A stretch of DNA of 59,275 nucleotides, counting the filler, from Dugesia japonica (taxonomy: Eukaryota), in NCBI GenBank assembly GCA_001938525.1. It is 5 parts of 5 records of this genome, joined end to end, with 100 filler letters (N's around TTAATTAATTAA, not from the genome) between each part and the next. Parts side by side here need not be neighbours in the genome. Positions count along the whole stretch, not along the records: positions 38,846 to 59,275 come from MQRL01628381.1; 4 more parts are not named here. One strand, 5' to 3'. Each line of letters opens with the position of its first letter. Positions within the stretch are counted from its first letter, which is position 1. Shown here one piece after another: positions 7,401-59,275 of the stretch. The translations under genes and the position numbers were made by a program. Below the pieces are notes generated by a model, which did no database searches, was not told the origin of the DNA, and saw only the letters and a list, made by a program, of their open reading frames with translations.

Positions 7401-8200
7401 TATCCATCCGCTTTCTTCAATGTCTCCACATATGCTTCCATTAAATCTTCGTGAAGCATACATATTACTCAACGTTTCTGATCTTTCTTAACAACGATGT
7501 TCTTTGCCTCAAAGTATATTTCACACAGTTTGATAAACTTCTCTAGATCATCGCCTCTGCAAAATATTTCTGGCAACAATCTTTCTGGGATCGCATCGGT
7601 GTTTACCGCTGCCACCATGTTATATGAGATTGGAAAACTCATCGGATTATCAACATCAAAACTCGAATTCATTACAAAATTTATACAAATAAAAACTCTG
7701 ACCATCATTTTTTGTTTATTCAAACAAATTAAAACTTCATGCTCTTATCGGAAATTATTTTTCACAAATTTAAAATTTAGATTTAAAACTTGATTTAAAT
7801 TAATTGGAAAATTTACAGAGTACAATTATTTTTTAATAACACATCCTTTAATAACACAAAACTTTAAAACCAGAATGACCATTTGTTAATAAAAATTTTC
7901 ATAAAATTTTAAAACAAAAAATGATCATTTGTTAATAAGATATCCTTTAAAATTTTCAAAAAACCTTTCATAAAATTTTCAAAACAAAATCACTTGCTAT
8001 TAAATTATCATTTTAAAATCTTCTGAACTTTCAAAACAAAATTGTCAATTCCAAAAATTTTAATTTATTTTAATTTCTTAATTAATTTGTAATAATAATT
8101 TTTTTTAAAAAGATTTTTAAAAACACCAATCCACGAAAAATAAATGAACTAAGGCCTTAAAAGTAGGCCTTCGACAAGTAGCCAGCCAGCAATTTTTACA
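4430..8200 (-). mobile_element. Decayed Ty3/Gypsy element, same family, convergent with the previous copy (gag-PR-RT-RH-INT start)
   Basis: gag ~7640-6800 with degenerate CCHC knuckles; CLLDT protease ~6640; KTAFSTKTGQFCFNRMPFGIAAAPGTFQ; TDASFDTIGAVLSQ; HTNADMLSRSRCNTCAQC; integrase start DVCGPL ~4530. Confidence 0.93.
8177..8188 (-). promoter_or_regulatory. Candidate primer-binding site of the Gypsy element (TGGCTGGCTACT)
   Basis: TGG-initiated GC-rich motif about 0.5 kb upstream of gag. Near-identical TGGCTGGCGACA lies at the equivalent position (13954-13943) of the related element. Confidence 0.45.
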
Positions 8201-10550: not shown

Positions 10551-10609
10551 ATTATTATTATTATTNNNNNNNNNNNNNNNNNNNNNNNNNNNNNNNNNNN
10601 NNNNNNNNN

Positions 10610-10621
10610 TTAATTAATTAA
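10610..10621. other. Artificial contig-joining linker TTAATTAATTAA inside an N-gap (also 19039-19050, 27835-27846, 38790-38801)
   Basis: Identical 12-mer with stops in all six frames, centred between equal N-runs four times. Confidence 0.95.
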
Positions 10622-10665
10622 NNNNNNNNNNNNNNNNNNNNNNNNNNNNNNNNNNNNNNNNNNNN

Positions 10666-35114: not shown

Positions 35115-36300
35115 AGTAGTTAGATGTGAGCTCACTGGTACAGATCCCCTCCCCCTCTACTAGTAGCGATAAAACATAACGCTGTGTTGGATATTTGGTA
35201 TGGGTTGTGATGAAAAGTTAAGAATAAAATATTGAATGAAATAAAATAAAATAGTGTTTTAATATTGAATAAGAAAGACGGTAATTTGTTGGCAGTATTT
35301 AAAAAATAAAATAAATGTTATTTGTTACTGTTAGAGATTAATTATGAAGTATTTTAATTGATTGGCGATTTAAAGTAAATCCGACGATTGTGATTACTCG
35401 ACTTTTATTGGAGAAAAACTTTGGATTTCGATACTTTGGCTTTCGTGTGGTAATTGCGGTTTTTATTACATTTTAAGACTTAATCACTATTAACGTTTAT
35501 TGTGATTTTCGAGTAATTTTTCGTAAATTTAGAAAGTAATTATTGTTAATTCATTAAAGTTGAGATTGTATTATAATTGTAATCGAGTTAAAATAAAAGT
35601 ATTAAATCTTGTTAGTTAATTGCGGTTGCTTAATAACTAAATAATAAATATTAGTAACAATTATTATTTGTTATCTTATTATTTAATATTTTTCATTTAA
35701 CATTTACTCGAAAAGTCTGATCGAAGGTGCACTTTTTTGGCAGACAAGTTGGGGAAAAAGAATGCTGGCAGAAAGTGAACACTTCTATTGATTGAGGAGG
35801 AGATTTACGTTTAAAGGAAGTATGTAGAAAAAGGGGAGAGACATTCATGACAGATAGATGGAATATAGGTAGGACACACTTCAAAAAACACAAAAAAATT
35901 ACAATAGTAGGAATTGTTGTGAAGTGGTATGATGTATGTGTTTGTAGAAAGTACAGATGCATATTTAAGTGTAATTTCTATAGTGATGTGATATAAAAAT
36001 ATCGTGAAAAAACAAAATTTGAATAAAATATTAGAAACAAACATTTTTAAAAAAAATAAAACCAATCTTAAAATTCAAAGAAAATTCCCTCATTAATTAA
36101 ATCATAAAAAGAAAAATTAAAAAAATAAATTTACTCACACAAACCCTTCTAGAACGATTTTAAAAATTCATACACACACTCACACATCAAAAAAATCCAA
36201 ACCATACTTTTTCATATTCCTTTATCTTTCCTATTTCTACAAAAAATAAATCACACTTCGGAAAAGAAATTTTCTTGTACCTAAACTACTTACAAACCAA
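35115..36300 (+). mobile_element. Maverick-type terminus followed by non-coding sequence resembling the foldback core
   Basis: AGTAGTTAGATGTGAGCTCACTGG..CCCCTCCCCC. The right boundary is approximate. Confidence 0.55.
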
Positions 36301-37959: not shown

Positions 37960-38710
37960 GACATGAATAATTTATTTTCATCTTCACTGTTTCTATTGAA
38001 GAATCATCTTTAGATTTCGTGTAGACCCACTTCATGATCTTAGATGCTATTTTGTTAGTCTTATATCCAAATCAAAAGTTAAGCGCAATGGATACATCAT
38101 CAAATATAAGATAATATGGATAATCACAAGTGAAGGNTATTCTTATCATATGGAATATAACAACATTTTCATTTTGTTTGACACTCAACGATTTTTCTTC
38201 GTTATTAATTGAAATAGTTATATCCTACGAAATATCGTTCTGTGTCATGAAATGAATTTGTGATTTGTTATAAACTGGAAATGGAGNNNNNNNNNNNNNN
38301 NNNNNNNNNNNNNNNNNNNNNNNNNNNNNNNNNNNNATATCCAAATCAAAAGTTAAGCGCAATGGATACATCATCAAATATAAGATAATATGGATAATCA
38401 CAAGTGAAGGTTATTCTTATCATATGGAATATAACAACATTTTCATTTTGTTTGACACTCAACGATTTTTCTTCGTTATTAATTGNAATAGTTATATCCT
38501 ACGAAATATCGTTCTGTGTCATGAAATGAATTTGTGATTTGTTATAAACTGGAAATGGAGAATATACAAAGGTGAAATCTTACAATACTAATTCCTACTA
38601 CATCAGGTTTTGAAGCTCAATAATGAATTTACTAGCTGTAGTTTCTGGATGAATAAGCGGACAACTATTACTCGGTAAAATTGTATAGAAATTATTTGAT
38701 TTTATCTCAT
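37960..38710 (-). pseudogene. Second Maverick minor capsid gene, 5' fragment
   Basis: NFYTILPSNSCPLIHPETTASKFIIELQN; nucleotide similarity to 23540-23715 (TTTTACCGAGTAATAGT, GATTTCACCTTT). Confidence 0.85.
38063..38560. repeat. 224-bp identical duplication on both sides of an N-gap (38063-38286, 38337-38560); probable assembly artefact
   Basis: Copies are identical apart from Ns and abut the gap. Confidence 0.9.
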
Positions 38711-38825
38711 TTTTTCTTTTTTTTGATAAACTATCTCTGATACTANNNNNNNNNNNNNNNNNNNNNNNNNNNNNNNNNNNNNNNNNNNNTTAATTAATTA
38801 ANNNNNNNNNNNNNNNNNNNNNNNN

Positions 38826-39213
38826 NNNNNNNNNNNNNNNNNNNNTTAAAACAATAAAAAAAAATTAAAACAAAAAAAAATATTAAAACAAAACAAAAAT
38901 AAAACAAAAAAATATGAAAACAAAAAAAAACGATTAAAACAAAAAAAACGATTAAAACAAAAAAAAATCTTTATAAAAACAAAATTTTTAAAGTTATGTA
39001 TTTCCGTGAGAGGGGGAGGGGCTATGTCTTTGTTCTGAAATAGAAAAATTTTCGAGAAAAGTATGAGTCATCAAAAATTCAAAAGGGGGGGGAGAAAAAG
39101 ATCAAAAAGGGGCGGAGTCCAAAAAGGGGCGGAGTCCAAAAAGTAGGTGGGCAAAAAATTGGGGGGTACCCCCCTCGAGGGGCCCCGGTTTGGTGCGCTC
39201 ATATCTACCTACT
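38826..39213 (-). mobile_element. Maverick-type right terminus with two GC boxes and an AP-1 site
   Basis: Reverse complement AGTAGGTAGATATGAGCGCACC; GGGGCGGAGT at 39109 and 39126; TGAGTCA ~39064. Confidence 0.75.
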
Positions 39214-39829
39214 GACAGAAATTGACATTGAAAATGTTATAAAAATCTATGAAGAATATAATAAGGATAATAATTGCGAACATTGTTCAGAAAATAAGAA
39301 GATTTTGAAAAGAAAATTTTTTGAAACAATTTATCGTGACAGTCATAAAAGAAAATGTTAGTTTAATGTATTAGTATAATGTTATAAATAAATAAATTTA
39401 ATCAGTAAATGTTTTTTCTNNNNNNNNNNNNNNNNNNNNNNNNNNNNNNNNNNNNNNNNNNNNNNNNNNNNNNNNNNNNNNNNNNNNNNNNNNNNNNNNN
39501 NNNNNNNNNNNNNNNNNNNNNNNNNNNNNNNNNNNNNNNNNNNNNNNNNGGGTGATATAGAAATTTTTTCTTTGTTTGTTTGGACATGGAAAATTTTTCG
39601 ATAAACGATGAGTCACCCTGATCTAGAAAATTTTTCTTGGTTTAAATGGACTTAGAAAATTTTTTGAAAAAAAGTATGACTCATCTTGATCTAGAAAAAC
39701 GATGAGTCATCGATGAGTCATCGTCTTTGTTCTAGTCATCGATAAGTCATACTTATGACTCAAGCTCTTTGTTATAAAAGTTCTTTGTCTAAGGGGGGGG
39801 GTGATCCAGCGCGCCACTATCTACCTACT
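39214..39829 (-). mobile_element. Maverick-type right terminus with AP-1 array; same family as the 56343 terminus
   Basis: Reverse complement AGTAGGTAGATAGTGGCGCGCTGGATCACCCCCCCC..TAGACAAAGAACTTTTATAACAAAGA; at least five TGA(G/C)TCA sites. Confidence 0.8.
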
Positions 39830-41388: not shown

Positions 41389-41715
41389 NNNNNNNNNNNN
41401 NNNNNNNNNNNNNNNNNNNNNNNNNNNNNNNNNNNNNNNNNNNNNNNNNNNNNNNNNNNNNNNNNNNNNNNNNNNNNNNNNNNNNNNNNNNNNNNNNNNN
41501 NNNNNNNNNNNNNNNNNNNNNNNNNNNNNNNNNNNNNNNNNNNNNNNNNNNNNNNNNNNNNNNNNNNNNNNNNNNNNNNNNNNNNNNNNNNNNNNNNNNN
41601 NNNNNNNNNNNNNNNNNNTTAATTACAATTATTTTTATTATTATTTTAATTATTTTAATTATTATAATAATTTTAATTAATATTTTAATTATTATAATTA
41701 TTTTAATTATTATTG
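41325..41715. repeat. (TTA)n microsatellite spanning a gap
   Basis: Perfect TTA run before the gap, degenerate after it. Confidence 0.95.
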
Positions 41716-42624
41716 TTAGTTGGGTTTTGAAAACTCATCGAGTCATTAACATCAGAATTCAAATTCATTACAACTATTTATTAATATAAAACGATAACCA
41801 TGCGCTACCACACTTCAAGCAAAATCCAACCATCCAACCCCATATGTCCTTTAGACAATATATAGATCGAATTTTTGTCCAACCACAACCAAATCTTAAA
41901 AACCCTTGAAAAACTATTTTCATGATCTCCAGCTTCCACTCGAGTCCAAATTCAGTCTTTCACACACATACACACAACCACACAAAGAAACTCAACTTGA
42001 CCTAATTTTTTAAATCCCCTATAGCAACCCAAACAAACACAAATTTTAAATTTTAAAAATACACATACTTAGGACCAAAAAACACTGATCTGATCAAAAC
42101 GTTTTGATCCGTTCAAAAGAATTTCTGATCTCAAAGTATTAAAAAAAACCATCACAAAATTTCGGTCACTATCGTAATCAATTGTCGAGACCTTATCTGA
42201 AATATGTTATAAATTTTATTCTAAATCAAATGCTATCATTTTTAGAACGATACGATAAGGTTTGACAGAGAAATTTAAAAAGCAAGGTCAAGTGTTTCTG
42301 TGCGCCACCACCTTTTCTCGGAGAACCAAGATTATTTTTTTAGTACCTATTAAACAAAAGATGTTTAGTTTTTAGTTCTATGATGATAAATACCAAATTC
42401 GAAACCATACGATGAAATTTGATTAAAAATTAAAAAAACCAATTTTCGATATTCGACCTTTCCAAGCAAAAATTCAACCGTTCCAACATGAATTCGAAAA
42501 CATTTGTCATGTATTCGTCACGTTCAATTAAAATCCTACTTGTCAAAAACATCAAAACAATTAAATTGTCAAAAACCGTTGGCGCCGGAAGGGTATTGTT
42601 CCAGTGTGGCACTATATATCTACT
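41716..42624 (-). mobile_element. Non-coding Maverick-type element related to the 45.5-kb foldback; terminus at 42624
   Basis: End reads AGTAGATATATAGTGCCACACTGGAAC on the minus strand; shares ACTGATCTGATCAAAA, GATCTCCAG and CACACAACCACAC blocks with the foldback. Confidence 0.75.
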
Positions 42625-43620
42625 GGCAACACAATGATGTGCTTAAACTACTCGCTAGGTTTACTAGAGCCAACACTTGCTATAAAGTCATCGTTGATCA
42701 GACCTGTGACCTTGTTAAGATGAATTATTGCGTTGACTTGCAACTAATAAATAGTGCGGGAAAGCGAATGATTTTACTGGATGGAAAGATTCCCTATGAT
42801 ACATCCAGTAATCTAAAATTAGAGAGAGACTTAAACATTGTCAAATACACACCACTCAATGAGAAAATTCAGAACAACCTAACCAAATGGAAACTTCTCC
42901 TTGAAAGGATCTCAATCAGGTGTCTGGGATCATGGTGCTTAGAAAATGAGCATGTACTCAAATAGGTTGGGTTCCATCCTAACACTATAAAATCATTCGC
43001 TCTTGTCTCGATCAGAAAGGACATAGCTTGGTCGAGCAATCATTGGAGATTCCGCAACGGACAAGCTGGCAATCTGGACATTGAAGAAATAGAAGAATCT
43101 AGAGCCAAAATGTATGAGTTGGATGAAACTAATAAAGGTTCCAAACCAAAAAAGTTACCAAAGGTTTCTTTACGCTATTTTCCTTTTCTTCTCATTTCGT
43201 TTTCTTTTAACAAAGTTTTAAGCTGGCCAAACCAGGACATGATTAAGCCTGGAGAGGATTTTCTAACCTGAAATATGGTATTGTATATTGCAGCGTATTA
43301 ATACGTGTAGTCCCTGTAGACTTATTTTACACTTTATCTTTTCTATATAACTTTTTATCTATAAGGCTTGAATATTAGAATGTCATGTGAGTAGCATTCA
43401 TATTGCACTATTTGCTCACTTGTAATGGACACATACTTTGTATGTAACGCAACATATTATTCATTTATCTTTCATACTTCATGTAAATTTCATAAATATT
43501 TTTAATACTTCTATACAATTTCATAAAATGTTTTTTATACTTCTAAATAATTGTATAAAATGTTTTAATACTTCTATACTCAAGGTTTAATTTATTGAAT
43601 AAAGAATTCATTACATTACA
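42625..43620 (+). mobile_element. 3' fragment of an R2/NeSL-like non-LTR retrotransposon (restriction-like endonuclease + 3' UTR)
   Basis: (R)HNDVL, VDL...D.KIPYD, KY.PL, LGSW...N..VL..VG motifs; AATAAA near 43600. ORF 42504-42965 is a chimera across the insertion point. Confidence 0.85.
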
Positions 43621-44408
43621 ATTTGAATTCAACATGTAAAAATATGAGTTTTATCTTATGAAAAATAGATATCATTTCAATAAAACCATTAACTATTTAT
43701 TTTCAGCTTAGCTTGCTCATTGGTTTCTCTGTGTGCACGTTTGTTTTTTTAGTTCCATTTTCTTTTAAATACTTAACTATCAGTTACATTAAAAATCAAA
43801 CTTTAGATTATAACTTAAACATCATTATATGGTTTCAATATGGAAAATATATGTTTCTACATTAGAGAATAATAAACTTATCATAGACAATACCAGTTTT
43901 ACCATTAGAAAATATTAGTTTGGGCATAGAAAATATTTAGTAAAGTATATCTAGTCACTGATTATATTACATTTATTTTATACATGCAGTCATTTAATAT
44001 GCTTAATTTATCTATGTTTTATCAATTTTCACTTACTTTTTCACCTTATCCCCAACTTTAATCAGTTTTCATGATTAACACTCGTTTTTCATTATTTACC
44101 ACTATTTAGCCATAAACAGCTATATTTCCCCTTGTTGTACACCATCTCCGATCATTTAGCTATATTTTTAATATTTAACAATATTTTCTCAATCTTCTTT
44201 TGAGTTTTAATATACATTTTCACCTCATATGTTCATGGACCCTGTTAAGTGAGTTTGGAAATCTCGTCGAATCATTAACATCAGAATTCAACTCCATATA
44301 TTTGTTGGGGTCCCACCTGAGTTGAGCGACAAAAAAGGTGGCTGGGGAAAAAACAGCCCTCAGAGGAACCCTTTCGAGAATTTAACCTACCGTATCTGTG
44401 TCAGGTTT

Positions 44409-44897
44409 TCAGTTCATGGTGGTTGACCACACCCACAAACCTTTATTTTCGGGTTCAATATTTTCCCTAATATATAAAGATTTAAACCAATAATTTTTTG
44501 AACATTTATTATTTAAAACGCTGGGATCTAGCCATTGATCTGGATCATTTATTGTAAAATTAAACGCCGCATAATCAACCGCATCGTTCCACTGTACCCA
44601 AGTTGGGTTACCGATTTGACGAGAAAGATCAGCTAAATACTGCTTTAAAAAATCGATCTTCCTTATCAGCAGTTGTTTGTTTTCGTCGTCTAGCGCCTTA
44701 GTTTGGACTGCCAAATCGTTTTGTTTTTTAACGATTAAGTCTAACTTTTTAATAAGTTTGTCACGTTGGCCAAGATGTTTTAAAAGAGTCTTATCTGCTT
44801 TGCGCTTTAAGTGGCGTTCCAACAACAAACGACGCATGATCCGGTGGCACCTTCGTAAACTTGTGTTTTTAAAAATTATATTAATGTTATATATCAC
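44409..44897 (-). CDS. Unknown basic coiled-coil protein (intact frame, probably an exon), element-borne
   Basis: 162-codon open frame in very AT-rich DNA; homologous to decayed 9975-10314. Confidence 0.65.
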   Translation of the reverse strand: MIYNINIIFKNTSLRRCHRIMRRLLLERHLKRKADKTLLKHLGQRDKLIKKLDLIVKKQNDLAVQTKALDDENKQLLIRKIDFLKQYLADLSRQIGNPTWVQWNDAVDYAAFNFTINDPDQWLDPSVLNNKCSKNYWFKSLYIRENIEPENKGLWVWSTTMN

Positions 44898-45543
44898 ATT
44901 TTAGGAAATTTTTTGATCTTCTCTACGTTTCTTTCAAGACATTTTTCGTTTGTATCTTCCATAATGAAACGTCTGTTGTGAACTTTCCTCTTAATCTTAT
45001 AGGGTCCTTCATAACGATTTTGGTTCTTGTTTCTTGTTTCACTTCACTAAATTCAGGAATAGAAAATATTTAATATAGTAAATCTAGTCACTAATTATAC
45101 TGTATTTATTCTATACATAGTCATTTAATATGCTTAATTTGTCTACGTTTTGACTTATTTTCTTACCATTTCTGATACTTTAGTCATTTTTGACCATTTA
45201 CCATATATTTCCTTGACTTACCCCTATTAAGCTATATTTAACATATTTTCACTGATTTCTATTATGTTTTAATGCATATTTTCATAGACCTCACTTCAAT
45301 AATCTTTAAAACGTGGCATATATTAATAAAAGAAGACAATATGGCTGAGTGAGACCTAGTAAGATGATTTTTATTTAAAATAATATAACTATGTCAGTAT
45401 ATTTTAATCATCTTATTATCCTGCTGCTTCTTTGCTTGCTCTTTGGTTTTTATGGGTATCTCTTTCTTTTAAATACCTTATATTCAGATATATTGTTAAA
45501 GAATAATAGTTCAACATGGAAAATACGGATCTCGCCATTAGAA

Positions 45544-46658
45544 AGTAGATGGATAGTAGCGCACTGGAAGACTTTTTTTTGATCGATTCCCCCCCCCCAT
45601 TTTTTTGTTTAAATGAGGTAAATTTTTTTTTAAATTAAGTCAAAGTAATTATTTTTGTTTAAATTGAGTGAAATTATTAGATTTTTGTTTAAATTAACGA
45701 AATTAGTGATTCTTTGTTTAAATTAATCAAAATTAAATGATTGTTTTTTTAAATTTAAAGAAATGAATAACTTTTGAGTTTCTTCATGGAAAAGTTATTG
45801 AAAAGCTTATATCTCGTTTAATTAAACAAAATTTATCGAATGTGATTTTCTCCTCGGAAACACATTACGCTTGAGCTGCGTTTTTTGACATGATTTTTGT
45901 ATTCGTTTTTTTATTCCTAAGATTTTTGGGATCAAAAACATTTTTTTATCGAATCAGTTTTTTTATCCTGGGTGTGTGTGCGTATTTTTAAATTTTTTTG
46001 TATGTTTGGATTGCTAAGGTAGTTTTAAAAAAGTAGGTCAAGTTTTTTTTGTGTGTGTGGTTGTGTGTGTAAGAGTAGAAAAACAAGTAGGAGGAACTGG
46101 AGATCTTGGAAATAATTTTTTGTAGTTTTAAAGATTTGGTTGTAGTTGGACAAAAATTTGACCTTCTTTTTAAAAACCACCTTAGGAATCCAAACACACA
46201 CAAAAATCAAAAATACGCACACACACTCAGGATAAAAAAAACTGATCTGATCAAAAAAATTTTTTGATCCCAAAAATCTTAGGAATAAAAAAACGAACAC
46301 AAAAATCATGTCAAAAAAACGCAGCTCAAGCGTAATGTGTTTCCGAGGAGAAAATCACATTCGATAAATTTTGTTTAATTAAACGAGANNNNNNNNNNNN
46401 NNNNNNNTTTCCATGAAGAAACTCAAAAGTTATTCATTTCATTAAATTTAAACAAACAATCATTTAATTTCGATTAATTTAAACAAAAATCCAATAATTT
46501 CACTCAATTTAAACAAAAATAATTACTTTGACTTAATTTAAAAAAAATTCACCTCATTTAAACAAAAAGAATGGGGGGGAACGGTCGAAAATAAAAAATC
46601 TTCCGAAATTTTTTTTTCATTCGGGGAGGGTGTTCCAGTGCGATACTATCCATCTAAT
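45544..46658. mobile_element. Non-autonomous Maverick-type foldback element, about 500-bp inverted arms, about 100-bp spacer, 6-bp TSD TTAGAA
   Basis: Left end AGTAGATGGATAGTAGCGCACTGGAA, right end TTCCAGTGCGATACTATCCATCTAAT; TTAGAA at 45538-45543 and 46659-46664; arms are near-perfect reverse complements. Confidence 0.92.
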
Positions 46659-48249
46659 TTAGAAATACTTGATTCAACATTGAAAATATTAGCTTTAATA
46701 GATTATTTTTTTTGGTGTTATCAATAAGAACAGGATTTTATCATGAAAAAGTAGGTTTGGCAATGGTAAATATAGGATTTATCGAGCAAAATAATGGTTT
46801 TATCATGAAAATATATGTTTAATGGAAAATAAGGGTTTTATCATTGAGTGTAAGACCATTAAATTAGATATATTCAAAACACTACATTAAGATTTACTGA
46901 AATTTTCAACACATAGACCAACACATGGATAACCGAGTAATATCTATTCAATGTTTCTGATAAAAACTAGGGTTCACTTCATTCTCAGTAAGTTTCTTTG
47001 CTTTAACGTAGAAAAATGATAAGTAAGGGTAAGAGTGAGAAGCATTAAATTTACTAAACCTCGTGAAATTCAATCTGAGATTTTATAGTACTCAATAAAG
47101 AGTTTAAGAAATTAAACAGTAGTCGATAAAAAGTTTATGAAATTGCACAGAAATCGATATTCCTTTCAAGTCCTATGTAAATTAATGGGAAAATTTATCT
47201 AAAAGTGACTAGAAGTATCTTAATATTTTATGAATTTGCACAGTAGTCACAAATGTTTAAATAAAATTTGAGAAATATGAATTAATTTTAGAATTATAAT
47301 TTTGAAATAAGAATAAGACTTTTAATGAAAATTTGAAATAAAATTTTTAATGAATATAATTACTTTTAGAATTGTAATTTTGATATTAGATTTTGACTTT
47401 TCTTTATTATTATTATTGGTATTACACATATATCTTAATTAACTATTTATTAATAATCATTTATTATTATTGTTAGATTTAGAAATAGAGTTAAGCACAA
47501 AATATATATTCTTAAACAAAATGATACAAAATGTAACAAATATATAGCTTTTGAGNNNNNNNNNNNNNNNNNNNNNNNNNNNNNNNNNNNNNNNNNNNNN
47601 NNNNNNNNNNNNNNNNNNNNNNNNNNNNTTATCACATACATATGTTAATTTACTTATATAAAGGTCAATATGAAATATTATATTATTAATCATATCTCAC
47701 ATTCCTCTCTTTTAAAGTGTTTTGACCATTCAATATTTCTTATTATTCTTTTATCATTAGTAAGTTGTAATTAAAGTGTTTCTTAAAACATTAAATTTAT
47801 TAACACTTTATTAATTAAGGTCAACTTATTTTTAATGTACCCGGGAGCGACTTGTATTTTTATCATATGAGATTTACTAATTTAAATTAAATTGTACTCT
47901 AGAAATAAGTTGATCCACTATTACAATCTAAAAGTCTAAAAATTATAACCAACTAAAAAGCTTGAAATTATTAACGATTAAAAAGTCTTAGCATTATCAT
48001 CACCTAAAACGTTTGAAAACGTTAACCAGATAACAAACAAACAAACCAGATTGATTGATCAAATTTTTATTAATTAAATATTTTACTTTGAAAAATGAAT
48101 TAATCTTATTATTTGGTTTTTACAGGGTTTCTATTATTTTTTAATATTCCTCAGGGACTCCCAAATAAAGTAATTGTTTCTTCTATATAACTTTTTATGT
48201 ATAAGGTTTGTTGATTTTTAACTGTGTTATTCGTACTCACCGTAAATTT

Positions 48250-54661: not shown

Positions 54662-54874
54662 TCACGAGAAATTTGCGAGTTCTAATACTCCAAATGCAAT
54701 TGGTAGTAATTCTGTTATAAATCCGCCATATTGTTTATACAAAATCTTTTTTATTAATTTCTTATTCTATGTATTTATAAGTGTTAACAGCGACTTTTTA
54801 TGTTTTTCCTATGCCTGTCTTCTATTTTTGCTTAAAGTTACATTACCATGAACGAAATTCACAATAATCTCAAG
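54662..54874 (-). pseudogene. Second Maverick PW-like gene, cut at its 5' side by the 54875 terminus
   Basis: EIIVNFVHGNVTLSKNRRQA*EKHKKSLLTLINT*NKKLIKKILYKQYGGFITELLPIAFG; homologous to 22190-22440. Confidence 0.8.
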
Positions 54875-55090
54875 AGTAGGTAGATCCTAGTGCATGTATA
54901 AAAATTTTCAAGGTCAAAGTGGCTTCATATACTCAATTTTGATTGGTCGAAATTTTCAAGGTCATATTATTTCAAGGTTAAAGTGGCTACGTATACTCGA
55001 CTTNGATTAGTGGTAAGTTTTTTCCAATGTCAATGTGGCTACGTATACTCAATTCTGATTAAAAGAAATGTTTTCAAGTTCAAAATTGTG
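54875..55090 (+). mobile_element. Maverick-type left terminus with TCAAGGTCA / GTGGCTACGTATACTC / GATTGG subterminal repeats
   Basis: AGTAGGTAGATCCTAGTGCA; repeats match the reverse complement of 29830-29985. Confidence 0.75.
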
Positions 55091-56342: not shown

Positions 56343-58794
56343 TGTAGGTAAATAGTAGCGCAATAGATCACCCTTGCCCCTCCTCCTAGACAAGAAACTT
56401 TTATAACAAAGACAATGATTCATACCTATGACTCATTGATGACTGAAAAAAGACGATGACTCAGCATGATGACTCATTGATGACTAGAACAAAGACAAGG
56501 ACTCATCGTATTTTAGATTAAGAGTCATCGTTTTTATTGATCATAAGTCATAGTTTTTCTTAAAGTTATTTTCAAAGTCAGTTATCTATTACCCACGATT
56601 CTGATTGGTCAGTGATATAGTATCCATAATTCTGTATGGTAGACATTATTCAAAGGTTTAATGATGAGCCCCCTATAAAAAATTTTTTTAATTTTTTATT
56701 TATTTATTTTTTGTAAATTTTTTTTTAAAAATTTTTTTTACCAGTTCATCGTTTTTTTTAAGGTTATCCATTTGTATTTTTTTATCAAGGTCATCCAATA
56801 TTATGAGCACTACTACGTTTTCGAGTGTATTATTGCTTAGGTACCATGTAATATGTAAACAACAACCGTTTAATATATGGTTTTTGTATTAGTTGCATAG
56901 TTAACTGGTAATCATGTATTATAATGTTTTTGAGTGTTATACATATATAGCAAAATGAGTATATAAGGATTATGAGTGTATTATTTACATAGTAACCCTG
57001 TAATATAGGTTTTATGATTATATTATTTGAATAGTTACCTTGTATTATTTACATTGCAACCGTGTATTTAAGGGTTTATGAATGTATTATTTGCCTAGTT
57101 ACCTTGTGTTATTTACATATTAACCGTATATATTAGGGTTTATGAGTATATTATTTACATATTAACCGTGTGATTTAAGGTTTACGAGTGTAGTATTTGC
57201 ATAGTTACCTTGTATTATTTAAATATTAAACGTGTATTATTTACATATTAACCGTGTATTTAAAGTTTATGAGTGTATTATTTATCTAGTTACCTTGTAT
57301 TATTTACATAGTAACCGTGTATTTTAGGGTTTATAATTCTACTATTTACATATTAACTGTGTAATCAAAGGTTTACGAGTGTATTATTTGCATAGTTACC
57401 TTGTATTATTAACATAGCAACCATGTATTACATGGTTTATCATGTAAATATGGTTTATGAGTGTATATGATTTTAATATTTATAATGTAAAATTACTGTA
57501 TTAATACTTAATGTCTACTTGGTGTTATGTTTTTTACTGCAATAAATCATTATGAAAACATTAGTAATATTTAATTATATAACATTTTATATAACATAAA
57601 GAAAGACAAAATATAAATACATTTATTCAATGATAACAAATATATTCATTGTATTTATTCATTTCAGTCAGATGCTTCTCCTTGGCAACCAGAAAATTAA
57701 ACGTTTCACATCCATTACAGTTAAGTGCGCAAAATTCCGGCGACATATATATTATATATATGCATAATATAAAACCACAACGTAATATATAAATTATTTG
57801 AAATTTAAATATCTAAATTTAAATTAATATTTTTTCGTACTTGAATTGTAAACGTTTTGCATTCATGTTGCGAAGTTTCTAAATTATTTCAATCAAATCA
57901 AATAAATATGAAGTAATGTTATTCACATATCCTTGAAAATTCAACTTTTAAAGCGTTAGTATTACTAGTTTTTCTGTTGAGAACGCATTTATACATAAAG
58001 TGTCATATTTTATAAGTCGTATAGGAAATAACTCCGGTTCAAACCAGTAGCTGACTATTCTTGCTAATTTATACATATTTATTGAAACTCACATATTTAC
58101 AACAATTAATAGTGACTTTAATTGTAAATTTTTATATCGTAGTGGTTCAATTCATGCGGTTTCAATGGTTTCTAACAACCCATTATTCCACATTTTTATG
58201 ATCTAAAGTAAATAATTGTAAAGTTATCACTTTTGACTTAAAATTGACATGGTATGTGTATAAAAAAGCTCATTTTATTTGTTACTTTTGCATCACTTCA
58301 TCTCTGTAATTAATATTGGTAATCATAATTAATGAATTTAGACGAAAATTTATATGAAAATTTCTCACACTCATAAACTATATTCATTCATAAAATATTC
58401 ACTTTTAAGATTTTATATAGACTTAGGAGACGGTTACTCAGTAATTTTAAGATATATATGAAAACGTTACATAATTATAAATCATATACACTCACAATCC
58501 CTTATATATACATACAAATATTTACTTAGTTATTTATCAGTTATTTTTGAAATAATTTCCACACTCATACACCATATAAACTCGAAAAACCTATACTACA
58601 CAGTGTTTAAGTAAATAATACAATGCAAATATACAAATATTACACTCATAAACCCTATATTATAAGTACCTTCATAAGCCTTTTATTACACGTTTGATAT
58701 GTATATAATTTCTTAAAAAGTATTATATTTCATAAACCTTATATTTTTTGGTTGCTATGTAAGTATAACACTCATAGACATTATAATACATGAT
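56343..58794. mobile_element. Mini Maverick-type element: long inverted arms with tandem arrays around a ~0.8-kb cargo; right arm interrupted at 58795
   Basis: Terminus TGTAGGTAAATAGTAGCGCAATAGATCACCC; GTTTATGAGTGTATTATTTACATA arrays (56800-57470) mirrored by ACACTCATAAAC arrays (58365-58794); 56911-56952 is the near reverse complement of 58752-58794. Confidence 0.75.
57879..58326 (-). pseudogene. Decayed minimal TATA-binding-protein-like gene (about 148 codons, two frameshifts, several stops)
   Basis: MITNINYR...TLQLF..KCGIMGC...NLQLKSLLIVVNM*VSINMYKLARIVSYWFEPELFPIRLIKYDTLCINAFSTEKLVILTL*KLNFQGYVNNITSYL aligns by eye to both TBP repeats (YEPELFP..IFVSGKVVLTGAK..AFENIYPIL). Confidence 0.75.
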
Positions 58795-59275
58795 AGTAGT
58801 TGGATAGTGGCCGTAAAGAACAGCACACATTCAGCAAACCCCCCCCCCGCCCCCTATACGTAAATGGATTATGACATAACTGTTTTTAAATTTTTCTAAT
58901 GTATTTAGTTGGGAAAATTTTTCAGGCTTTTTAGTTGTGAATTGGCTCTGTGAGGTCGATGAGGTTGAATTTTGATTGGTTTTAAGTGGTTTTTGTCAAA
59001 ACCTTTCTCGGTGAGGTGGAATAAGATTGATTTTTGATTGGTTTAAGTGAATTTGGTTTGAAATTTTCTCGGTGAGGTCGAATTTGGTCAATTTTTGAAT
59101 GGTTCAGGTTAATTTGGTCAAATATTTCCTCGGGATTGGTTGGTTTGGGTAATTTTTGGGCGTTTTGGTCTAATGTTTTCTTTGGCATTGATGATTTTTA
59201 TTGATTTAGGTGAACTTGGTTGAAAGTTTTCTCGGTTAGGTTGAATATAGTCAATTTTTGATTGGTTCAGTTGAA
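58795..59275 (+). mobile_element. Maverick-type left terminus followed by ~60-bp tandem repeats rich in ATTGG
   Basis: AGTAGTTGGATAGTGGCC..poly-C; repeated TTTCTCGGTGAGGTCGAATTTGGTCAATTTTTGATTGGTT. Confidence 0.75.

Follow-up and report, generated by a model that had tools for sequence, protein, structure and literature searches.

A near-palindromic 1.1-kb insertion with a 6-bp target-site duplication in Dugesia japonica, probably a gene-less Maverick/Polinton derivative

Introduction

Short non-autonomous Polintons of zebrafish were reportedly already described by Kapitonov and Jurka in 2006. Autonomous Mavericks/Polintons are elements of 13-25 kb that encode pPolB, an integrase, an ATPase and a capsid protein, and they carry AGT-type ends, a target-site duplication (TSD) of 6 bp and terminal inverted repeats (TIRs) of several hundred bp, with 584 bp in the anole and a vertebrate mean of 402 bp (PMC8097293, PMC3014272). 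In vertebrate Mavericks, the 6-bp TSD accompanies TIRs of 46-1,447 bp and end motifs of the form (AGT)2//(ACT)2 or (AG)3//(CT)3 (PMC8097293). Non-autonomous derivatives of this superfamily are named in Repbase, among them Polinton-1N1_DR (PMC9341505) and Polinton-N1A_NV, which keeps a capsid gene (PMC11296320). The anole apparently lacks such derivatives (PMC3014272). Tlr1 of Tetrahymena has sometimes been viewed as a group of non-autonomous Polintons, and has been reclassified among the Polinton-like viruses (PMC5499653). In the Polinton model, the TIRs of an excised single strand pair as a panhandle for protein-primed copying (PMC4046053, where the model is applied to casposons); the route of Maverick excision and replication was described as unknown in a 2010 study (PMC2836005).

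The locus analysed here lies in a window of 59,275 nucleotides from Dugesia japonica (assembly GCA_001938525.1), in which parts of five records are joined end to end with filler between them. The focal element, at 45544-46658, falls within the part from MQRL01628381.1 (window positions 38,846-59,275). Like autonomous Mavericks it has a 6-bp TSD, an AGT-type end and TIRs of several hundred bp, and unlike them it is 1.1 kb long and carries none of their genes. It shares non-autonomy with Polinton-1N1_DR and Polinton-N1A_NV, and differs from the latter in being gene-less and 91% TIR; Tlr1, in contrast, is large and gene-rich. MITEs and foldback elements such as FB and Galileo are likewise gene-less, with long TIRs that contain internal tandem repeats, and are moved by a helper, as is predicted for the focal element. 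They differ from it in their TSDs and ends, and their helpers are cut-and-paste transposases.

Structure of the focal element

The element is 1115 bp long, nearly palindromic and made up of TIR sequence over about 91% of its length (Table 1). The initial annotation had described a 1115-bp near-total inverted repeat with arms of about 500 bp, a spacer of about 100 bp and AGTAG ends with one substitution on the right, and arm alignment confirms this description. The left end begins AGTAGATGGATAG and the right end, read inward, begins ATTAGATGGATAG, the two differing at the second base. Measured against the canonical Maverick (AGT)2, or AGTAGT, the left end AGTAGA matches at 5/6 bases and the right end ATTAGA at 4/6; sister ends at 35115 and 58795 read AGTAGT. 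Between the arms there are 430 matches, 23 substitutions (12 transitions and 11 transversions; 94.9% identity), 19 N and 13 gaps, the largest of which remove 21+7 bases next to the inner edge of the terminal 29 bp and a single tandem unit of 29 bp.

Table 1. Features of the focal element, its target and related sequences, in window positions (summed contig depth is not a copy number)
Feature	Position	Strand	Basis or remark
AGTAG-type end at 19109, followed by decayed Maverick gene block	19109-27722	+	
ATPase remnant	21180-21830		
Integrase with chromodomain	22588-23540		
Penton-like gene	23530-24600		
N-terminal half of pPolB	26301-27722		
Diverged relative with a single end (AGTAG, at 42624), comprising arm and spacer	41864-42624	-	
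Host repeat, left part of target	44900-45537	.	summed contig depth about 1e4-9e5 in X1, X3 and X5 over 44912-45535
Left TSD, TTAGAA	45538-45543	.	sequence; present once in empty-site paralogues
Left arm (TIR, 506 bp), AGTAG end	45544-46049	+	arm alignment
Tandem array in left arm, 4.5 copies of 29-bp unit	45622-45755		
Spacer, 100 bp, non-palindromic	46050-46149	.	collinear with one-ended relative
Putative fold-back or deletion junction	46147-46164	.	homology of relative ends here; 13/17 bases agree with the inner end of the left arm in reverse complement
Right arm (TIR, 509 bp), 3.5-3.9 tandem units	46150-46658	-	arm alignment
19-N gap inside right arm	46389-46407		
Right TSD, TTAGAA	46659-46664	.	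sequence
Host repeat, right part of target	46665-46760	.	depth about 2e5 at 46664-46684 plus loose ends; weak in-window paralogue 43834-43901 across site
Second element with the same end type: repeat-rich arm of about 1.1 kb, TBP-like remnant (57885-58282), partial inverted arm cut by AGTAG end at 58795	56343-58794	+	

The gap within the right arm raises the question of an assembly fold-back artefact, which the roughly 120 bp beside the gap that show no mismatch between arms (chance about 0.002 for one fixed stretch) would also fit; local collapse or gene conversion is possible in that stretch. Against such an artefact, the arms differ elsewhere by their substitutions and by large indels, the flanks are two halves of one host-repeat site, and a contig from a sequencing run bridges the right junction. 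Because the arms differ and the flanks are collinear, an assembly fold-back is very unlikely.

The focal element has no recognisable coding capacity, its longest ATG frame being 94 low-complexity codons, and tblastn with 144 ORFs from metagenome Maverick loci L001-L016 gave no match inside it. Rfam returned no match in 41600-47500, and the minimal hammerhead motif (CTGANGA..GAAA) is absent from the repeat on both strands; a Penelope fold-back stub was rejected on these two grounds. A hairpin of 459 pairs is predicted for the element in single-stranded form, a trivial consequence of its sequence.

Target site and insertion as a unit

The window is eukaryotic DNA, rich in A and T, that contains Gypsy remnants and gaps of N. 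The sequence that flanks the focal element (44900-45543 and 46659-46700) is a very abundant host repeat with a degenerate subunit of about 21 bp and a summed contig depth, not a copy number, of up to 9e5; a circularly permuted paralogue of it lies at 43707-44222.

The hexamer TTAGAA stands directly outside both ends. Exact 6-mer matches at the spacing of the focal element occur at 57/55,464 window positions (0.1%). When all left-right pairs among 19 candidate ends are compared, the focal pair alone has a 6/6 flank match, and five other pairs reach 4/6. Among 24 public runs listed, 8 contain part of the stretch, with at best 27% of its words, and their contigs bear on the unoccupied site. Among the best 12 of 51 loose-end rows, five host-repeat contigs from run X3 start at 46659 with upstream letters that equal 45508-45537 at 25/30 bases, ungapped, and six from run X5 start at the same base with nearly the same upstream letters. 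In these contigs TTAGAA occurs once and is joined directly to left-flank-like sequence, so the unoccupied site has one copy and the duplication is exactly 6 bp. The bases next outward of TTAGAA differ between the two flanks, which likewise sets the TSD at exactly 6. The in-window paralogue at 43650-43960 does not discriminate between one and two copies of TTAGAA (scores 93 and 90).

One X5 contig covers 46580-46718 and bridges the right junction, with three other letters and three gaps. Among the matches listed (32 of 27,786 pieces), no contig bridges the left junction; none of the matches listed spans the whole element, and the run contigs are uninformative on the spacer. The empty-site paralogues in X3 and X5, which had been proposed as a check, confirm that the focal element is a real insertion that entered a host repeat as one unit with a true 6-bp TSD, as the duplicated TTAGAA (45538-45543 and 46659-46664) had first suggested. 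The 6-bp rule rests on this one copy: no other end pair in the window has a 6/6 TSD.

Maverick-type ends and genes in the window

A profile built from 12 similar ends of the window finds 13 ends in it, with leave-one-out scores of 12.3-39.8 bits, and five shuffled windows gave 0-1 hits with a maximum of 12.6. The TBP-like gene whose remnant lies in the second element also occurs in metagenome Maverick loci, as a short TATA-binding-protein-like ORF at L011:2175-2621, L006:311-784 and L004:231-714 (Pfam TBP, E about 1e-17). The ends at 39649-39829 and 56343-56579 are 80% alike and belong to one family, in which a short array of motifs of the GATGAGTCA type follows directly on the end. Two tiny units, 35115-35161 (47 bp) and 39142-39213 (72 bp), have AGTAG on the left, CTACT on the right and no clean 6-bp TSD, and the 72-bp unit contains GC-rich palindromes. 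Scraps of Maverick genes are found at 38517-38729 (a penton-like start) and at 54668-54874, where a small ORF of core type borders on an AGTAG end at 54875. The scaffold joints at 10566-10665, 18995-19094, 27791-27890 and 38746-38845 each consist of 44 N, a 12-base spacer and 44 N, and the sequences on their two sides need not be contiguous.

A decayed Maverick gene block follows the end at 19109, from which it is separated by 2.07 kb without N. Its integrase pieces match rve (E 3.9e-5), rve_3 (E 0.002) and a chromodomain (E 0.017), all below curated cut-offs, and have relatives at up to 82% identity. With the polymerase fragment, a word-based search gave no match and a HMMER search did find homologues. 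Pfam did not name pPolB in ten long homologues, and reported Endonuclease_7 in five of them; pPolB was identified by motifs A and B in 10/10 homologues and the exonuclease motif in 7/10. Metagenome locus L011 encodes an integrase, an A32-type ATPase, a double-jelly-roll-like capsid protein and pPolB, and the gene order of the window block is that of L011 except for the orientation of the polymerase and the absent major capsid gene. Searches of PDB sequences with a pPolB homologue and with the capsid-like protein of L011 gave no hits. Within 21180-27722, pPolB is directed away from the ATPase, integrase and penton-like genes, the reverse of its direction in L011, and there is no major capsid gene; this stretch may comprise two rearranged elements.

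Two sequence motifs link this block to the focal element. The 14-mer TTTTGATCAGATCA has four matches in the window against 0.10 expected, located in the right arm, in the one-ended relative, 266 bp inside the end at 19109 (at 19375) and in a paralogue of the region of that end. The 29-bp unit of the focal arms, which is very AT-rich, matches 25730-25839, upstream of pPolB, with a score of 74, compared with a maximum of 44 in 200 shuffles and a best score of 36 outside that region. Together with the end at 19109, these motifs would tie the focal element to the decayed Maverick by circumstantial evidence. The end and the gene block are adjacent in a nest of decayed elements and have no matching right end or TSD. 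A pairing of 19109 with 30022 as the two ends of one Maverick was rejected, with no TSD match and a scaffold gap between them.

An intact autonomous Maverick with the focal TIRs was found neither in the window nor in viral contigs nor in 80 metagenome loci. The end pattern had 0 hits in the viral contigs, where a single integrase protein gave no match and an integrase alignment gave distant matches alone (28-31% identity). In the 80 metagenome loci, kept of 235 confirmed, neither an AGTAG end nor similarity to the arms was convincing; blastn gave one hit, 27 bp long (E 0.004).

Superfamily assignment

The focal element has the 6-bp TSD of Mavericks, in one copy, and their long TIRs, of 506 and 509 bp; pPolB and integrase, which autonomous Mavericks encode, are absent from it. 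The initial assignment to Mavericks gains support from this TSD, from the Maverick-type ends and from the Maverick genes linked to such ends in the window. The focal element is thus probably a gene-less, non-autonomous Maverick/Polinton derivative that was integrated by a Maverick integrase in trans. Since the element codes for nothing recognisable, helper action can reasonably be assumed.

An origin in a different cut-and-paste superfamily with 6-bp TSDs (Ginger2, IS3EU or an unclassified one), as a MITE or an element of foldback type, with the nearby Maverick remains being coincidental, is considered unlikely. Long TIRs with internal tandem units do resemble those of foldback elements, no parent was found, and parts of the arms also occur in repeats of much greater abundance (at 45848-45951 the depth is about 1e5), so that the arm motifs are not specific to Mavericks. 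Against this origin, ends of the focal type occur together with Maverick genes twice in the window. IS3EU elements have TAY..RTA termini and a 6-bp TSD, and the focal ends AGT..AAT do not conform to these termini. Foldback (Drosophila FB) and Galileo, with TSDs of about 9-11 bp and 7 bp, respectively, were set aside in view of the focal TSD of exactly 6. Ginger2/Tdd was excluded by the AGTAG ends and the TTAGAA target, as Ginger2 has TGTNR ends and RTATAY targets in the cited description (PMC2836005).

A multi-copy family and a one-ended relative

Related arms are numerous in the runs X1, X3 and X5. Among the best 40 of 299 variant rows, variant letters of the arm occur, per run, in at least 35-40 contigs at 45771, at least 46-58 at 45901 and at least 116-120 at 45645. 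In the best 15 of 118 joints, the outermost 23-36 bp are connected to inner positions that vary between joints, and a 328-base skip within the arm is among the joints listed for both X1 and X5. Over most of the arm, summed depth amounts to hundreds to thousands, compared with about 4-14 for single X1 contigs, a measure that gives no copy number. At three of eight listed arm sites the right arm has the letter of the run majority and the left arm differs, and at five the two arms have the same letter, which is not that of the majority; other repeats predominate at some of these sites. The abundance of related arms in the species supports placing the focal element in a multi-copy family.

A diverged relative ends at 42624. 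It aligns with the focal element at 72.5% over 255 bp, with a score of 142, where 100 shuffles reached at most 40. No long inverted repeat lies within it (self score 40, with shuffles reaching 43), and no left flank matches its outer flank as a TSD would, since GGCAAC occurs five times in the window and never before a terminus. The initial annotation had taken a relative at 41716-42624 as a sign of a family; the family itself holds through the variant arm contigs, and the relative is no further hairpin: its homology starts at about 41864, and it has one end and no TSD. The stretch at 41714-41791 is a different repeat, with other copies at 7614 and 44243. The three copies (7614-7694, 41714-41791 and 44243-44297) start with TGTTA and are possibly an LTR or a Ginger-type end; the copy at 44243 is followed by a 163-codon frame at 44409-44900 on the minus strand.

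These observations also bear on a single collapsed Maverick, in which a full-length insertion would have lost its interior by deletion between the TIRs and the 1.1-kb form would never have been mobile. No second complete copy or shared spacer junction was readable from the variant arm contigs, the relative is one-ended, the contigs could derive from the TIRs of long elements, and the element at 56343-58794 looks like a deletion product of this type. Several different short joint layouts in three runs, including the 328-base skip, nevertheless suggest a set of short derivatives, and related arms are numerous even though the Maverick genes of the window are decayed. A lone collapsed insertion is rated as decidedly improbable, below an origin in another superfamily.

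Origin of the palindrome

The inner part of the left arm and the whole spacer are collinear with the one-ended relative, whose match ends at 46164, 15 bases into the right arm. At 46147-46164, 13/17 bases, counted by eye, agree with the inner end of the left arm in reverse complement. Since the relative is collinear and these bases match, the focal element looks like one end and its mirror copy joined at a short microhomology. A fold-back template switch and a microhomology deletion between longer TIRs would be expected to leave the same sequence, and the relative might be truncated at this point.

In the proposed series of events, one Maverick end would have switched template, or undergone a microhomology deletion, near 46147-46164, which left that end with its mirror image. 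The arms may then have paired as a panhandle that was copied by a helper protein-primed polymerase, as in the published Polinton model; plain integrase-driven excision and reinsertion would also fit. A helper integrase would next have cut the target with a 6-base stagger. The present copy is likely a fossil that is no longer active: the arms differ by 5%, or about 2.5% for each, and a terminal base is changed.

Snap-back (copy-back) defective viral genomes likewise consist of one end and its mirror image, with a short loop and a junction at inverted microhomology. They are known for helper-dependent extrachromosomal replication, packaging or interference, whereas the focal element is known from sequence alone and an internal deletion gives the same sequence. 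It is conceivable, if doubtful, that the family preserves as fossils the defective snap-back genomes of a Maverick virus, which would have arisen when the protein-primed polymerase switched template by fold-back at a short inverted microhomology, multiplied as minimal panhandles and been inserted by a helper. The panhandle or snap-back reading of the initial annotation is not established: arms of about 505 bp lie within the normal TIR range of 46-1,447 bp given for vertebrate Mavericks (PMC8097293), and snap-back and deletion do not differ in their product. No account of snap-back non-autonomous Mavericks was found in the literature; Repbase entries were outside the scope of that search, and absence from print is not claimed.

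Significance

Non-autonomous Polintons are already catalogued, and the focal element adds what is likely another Maverick-derived member. As a gene-less unit of 1.1 kb with the right integration signature, it narrows the cis signals of Mavericks to the terminal 29 bp or so, the 29-bp array and the shared 14-mer, and it helps to annotate an abundant repeat class in this genome. With such elements catalogued and the focal copy diverged and likely dead, the gain is incremental unless a snap-back origin is shown. If the snap-back reading is true, the family would define the minimal cis-acting unit of Maverick replication, and it could have helped to extinguish the autonomous elements in this genome.
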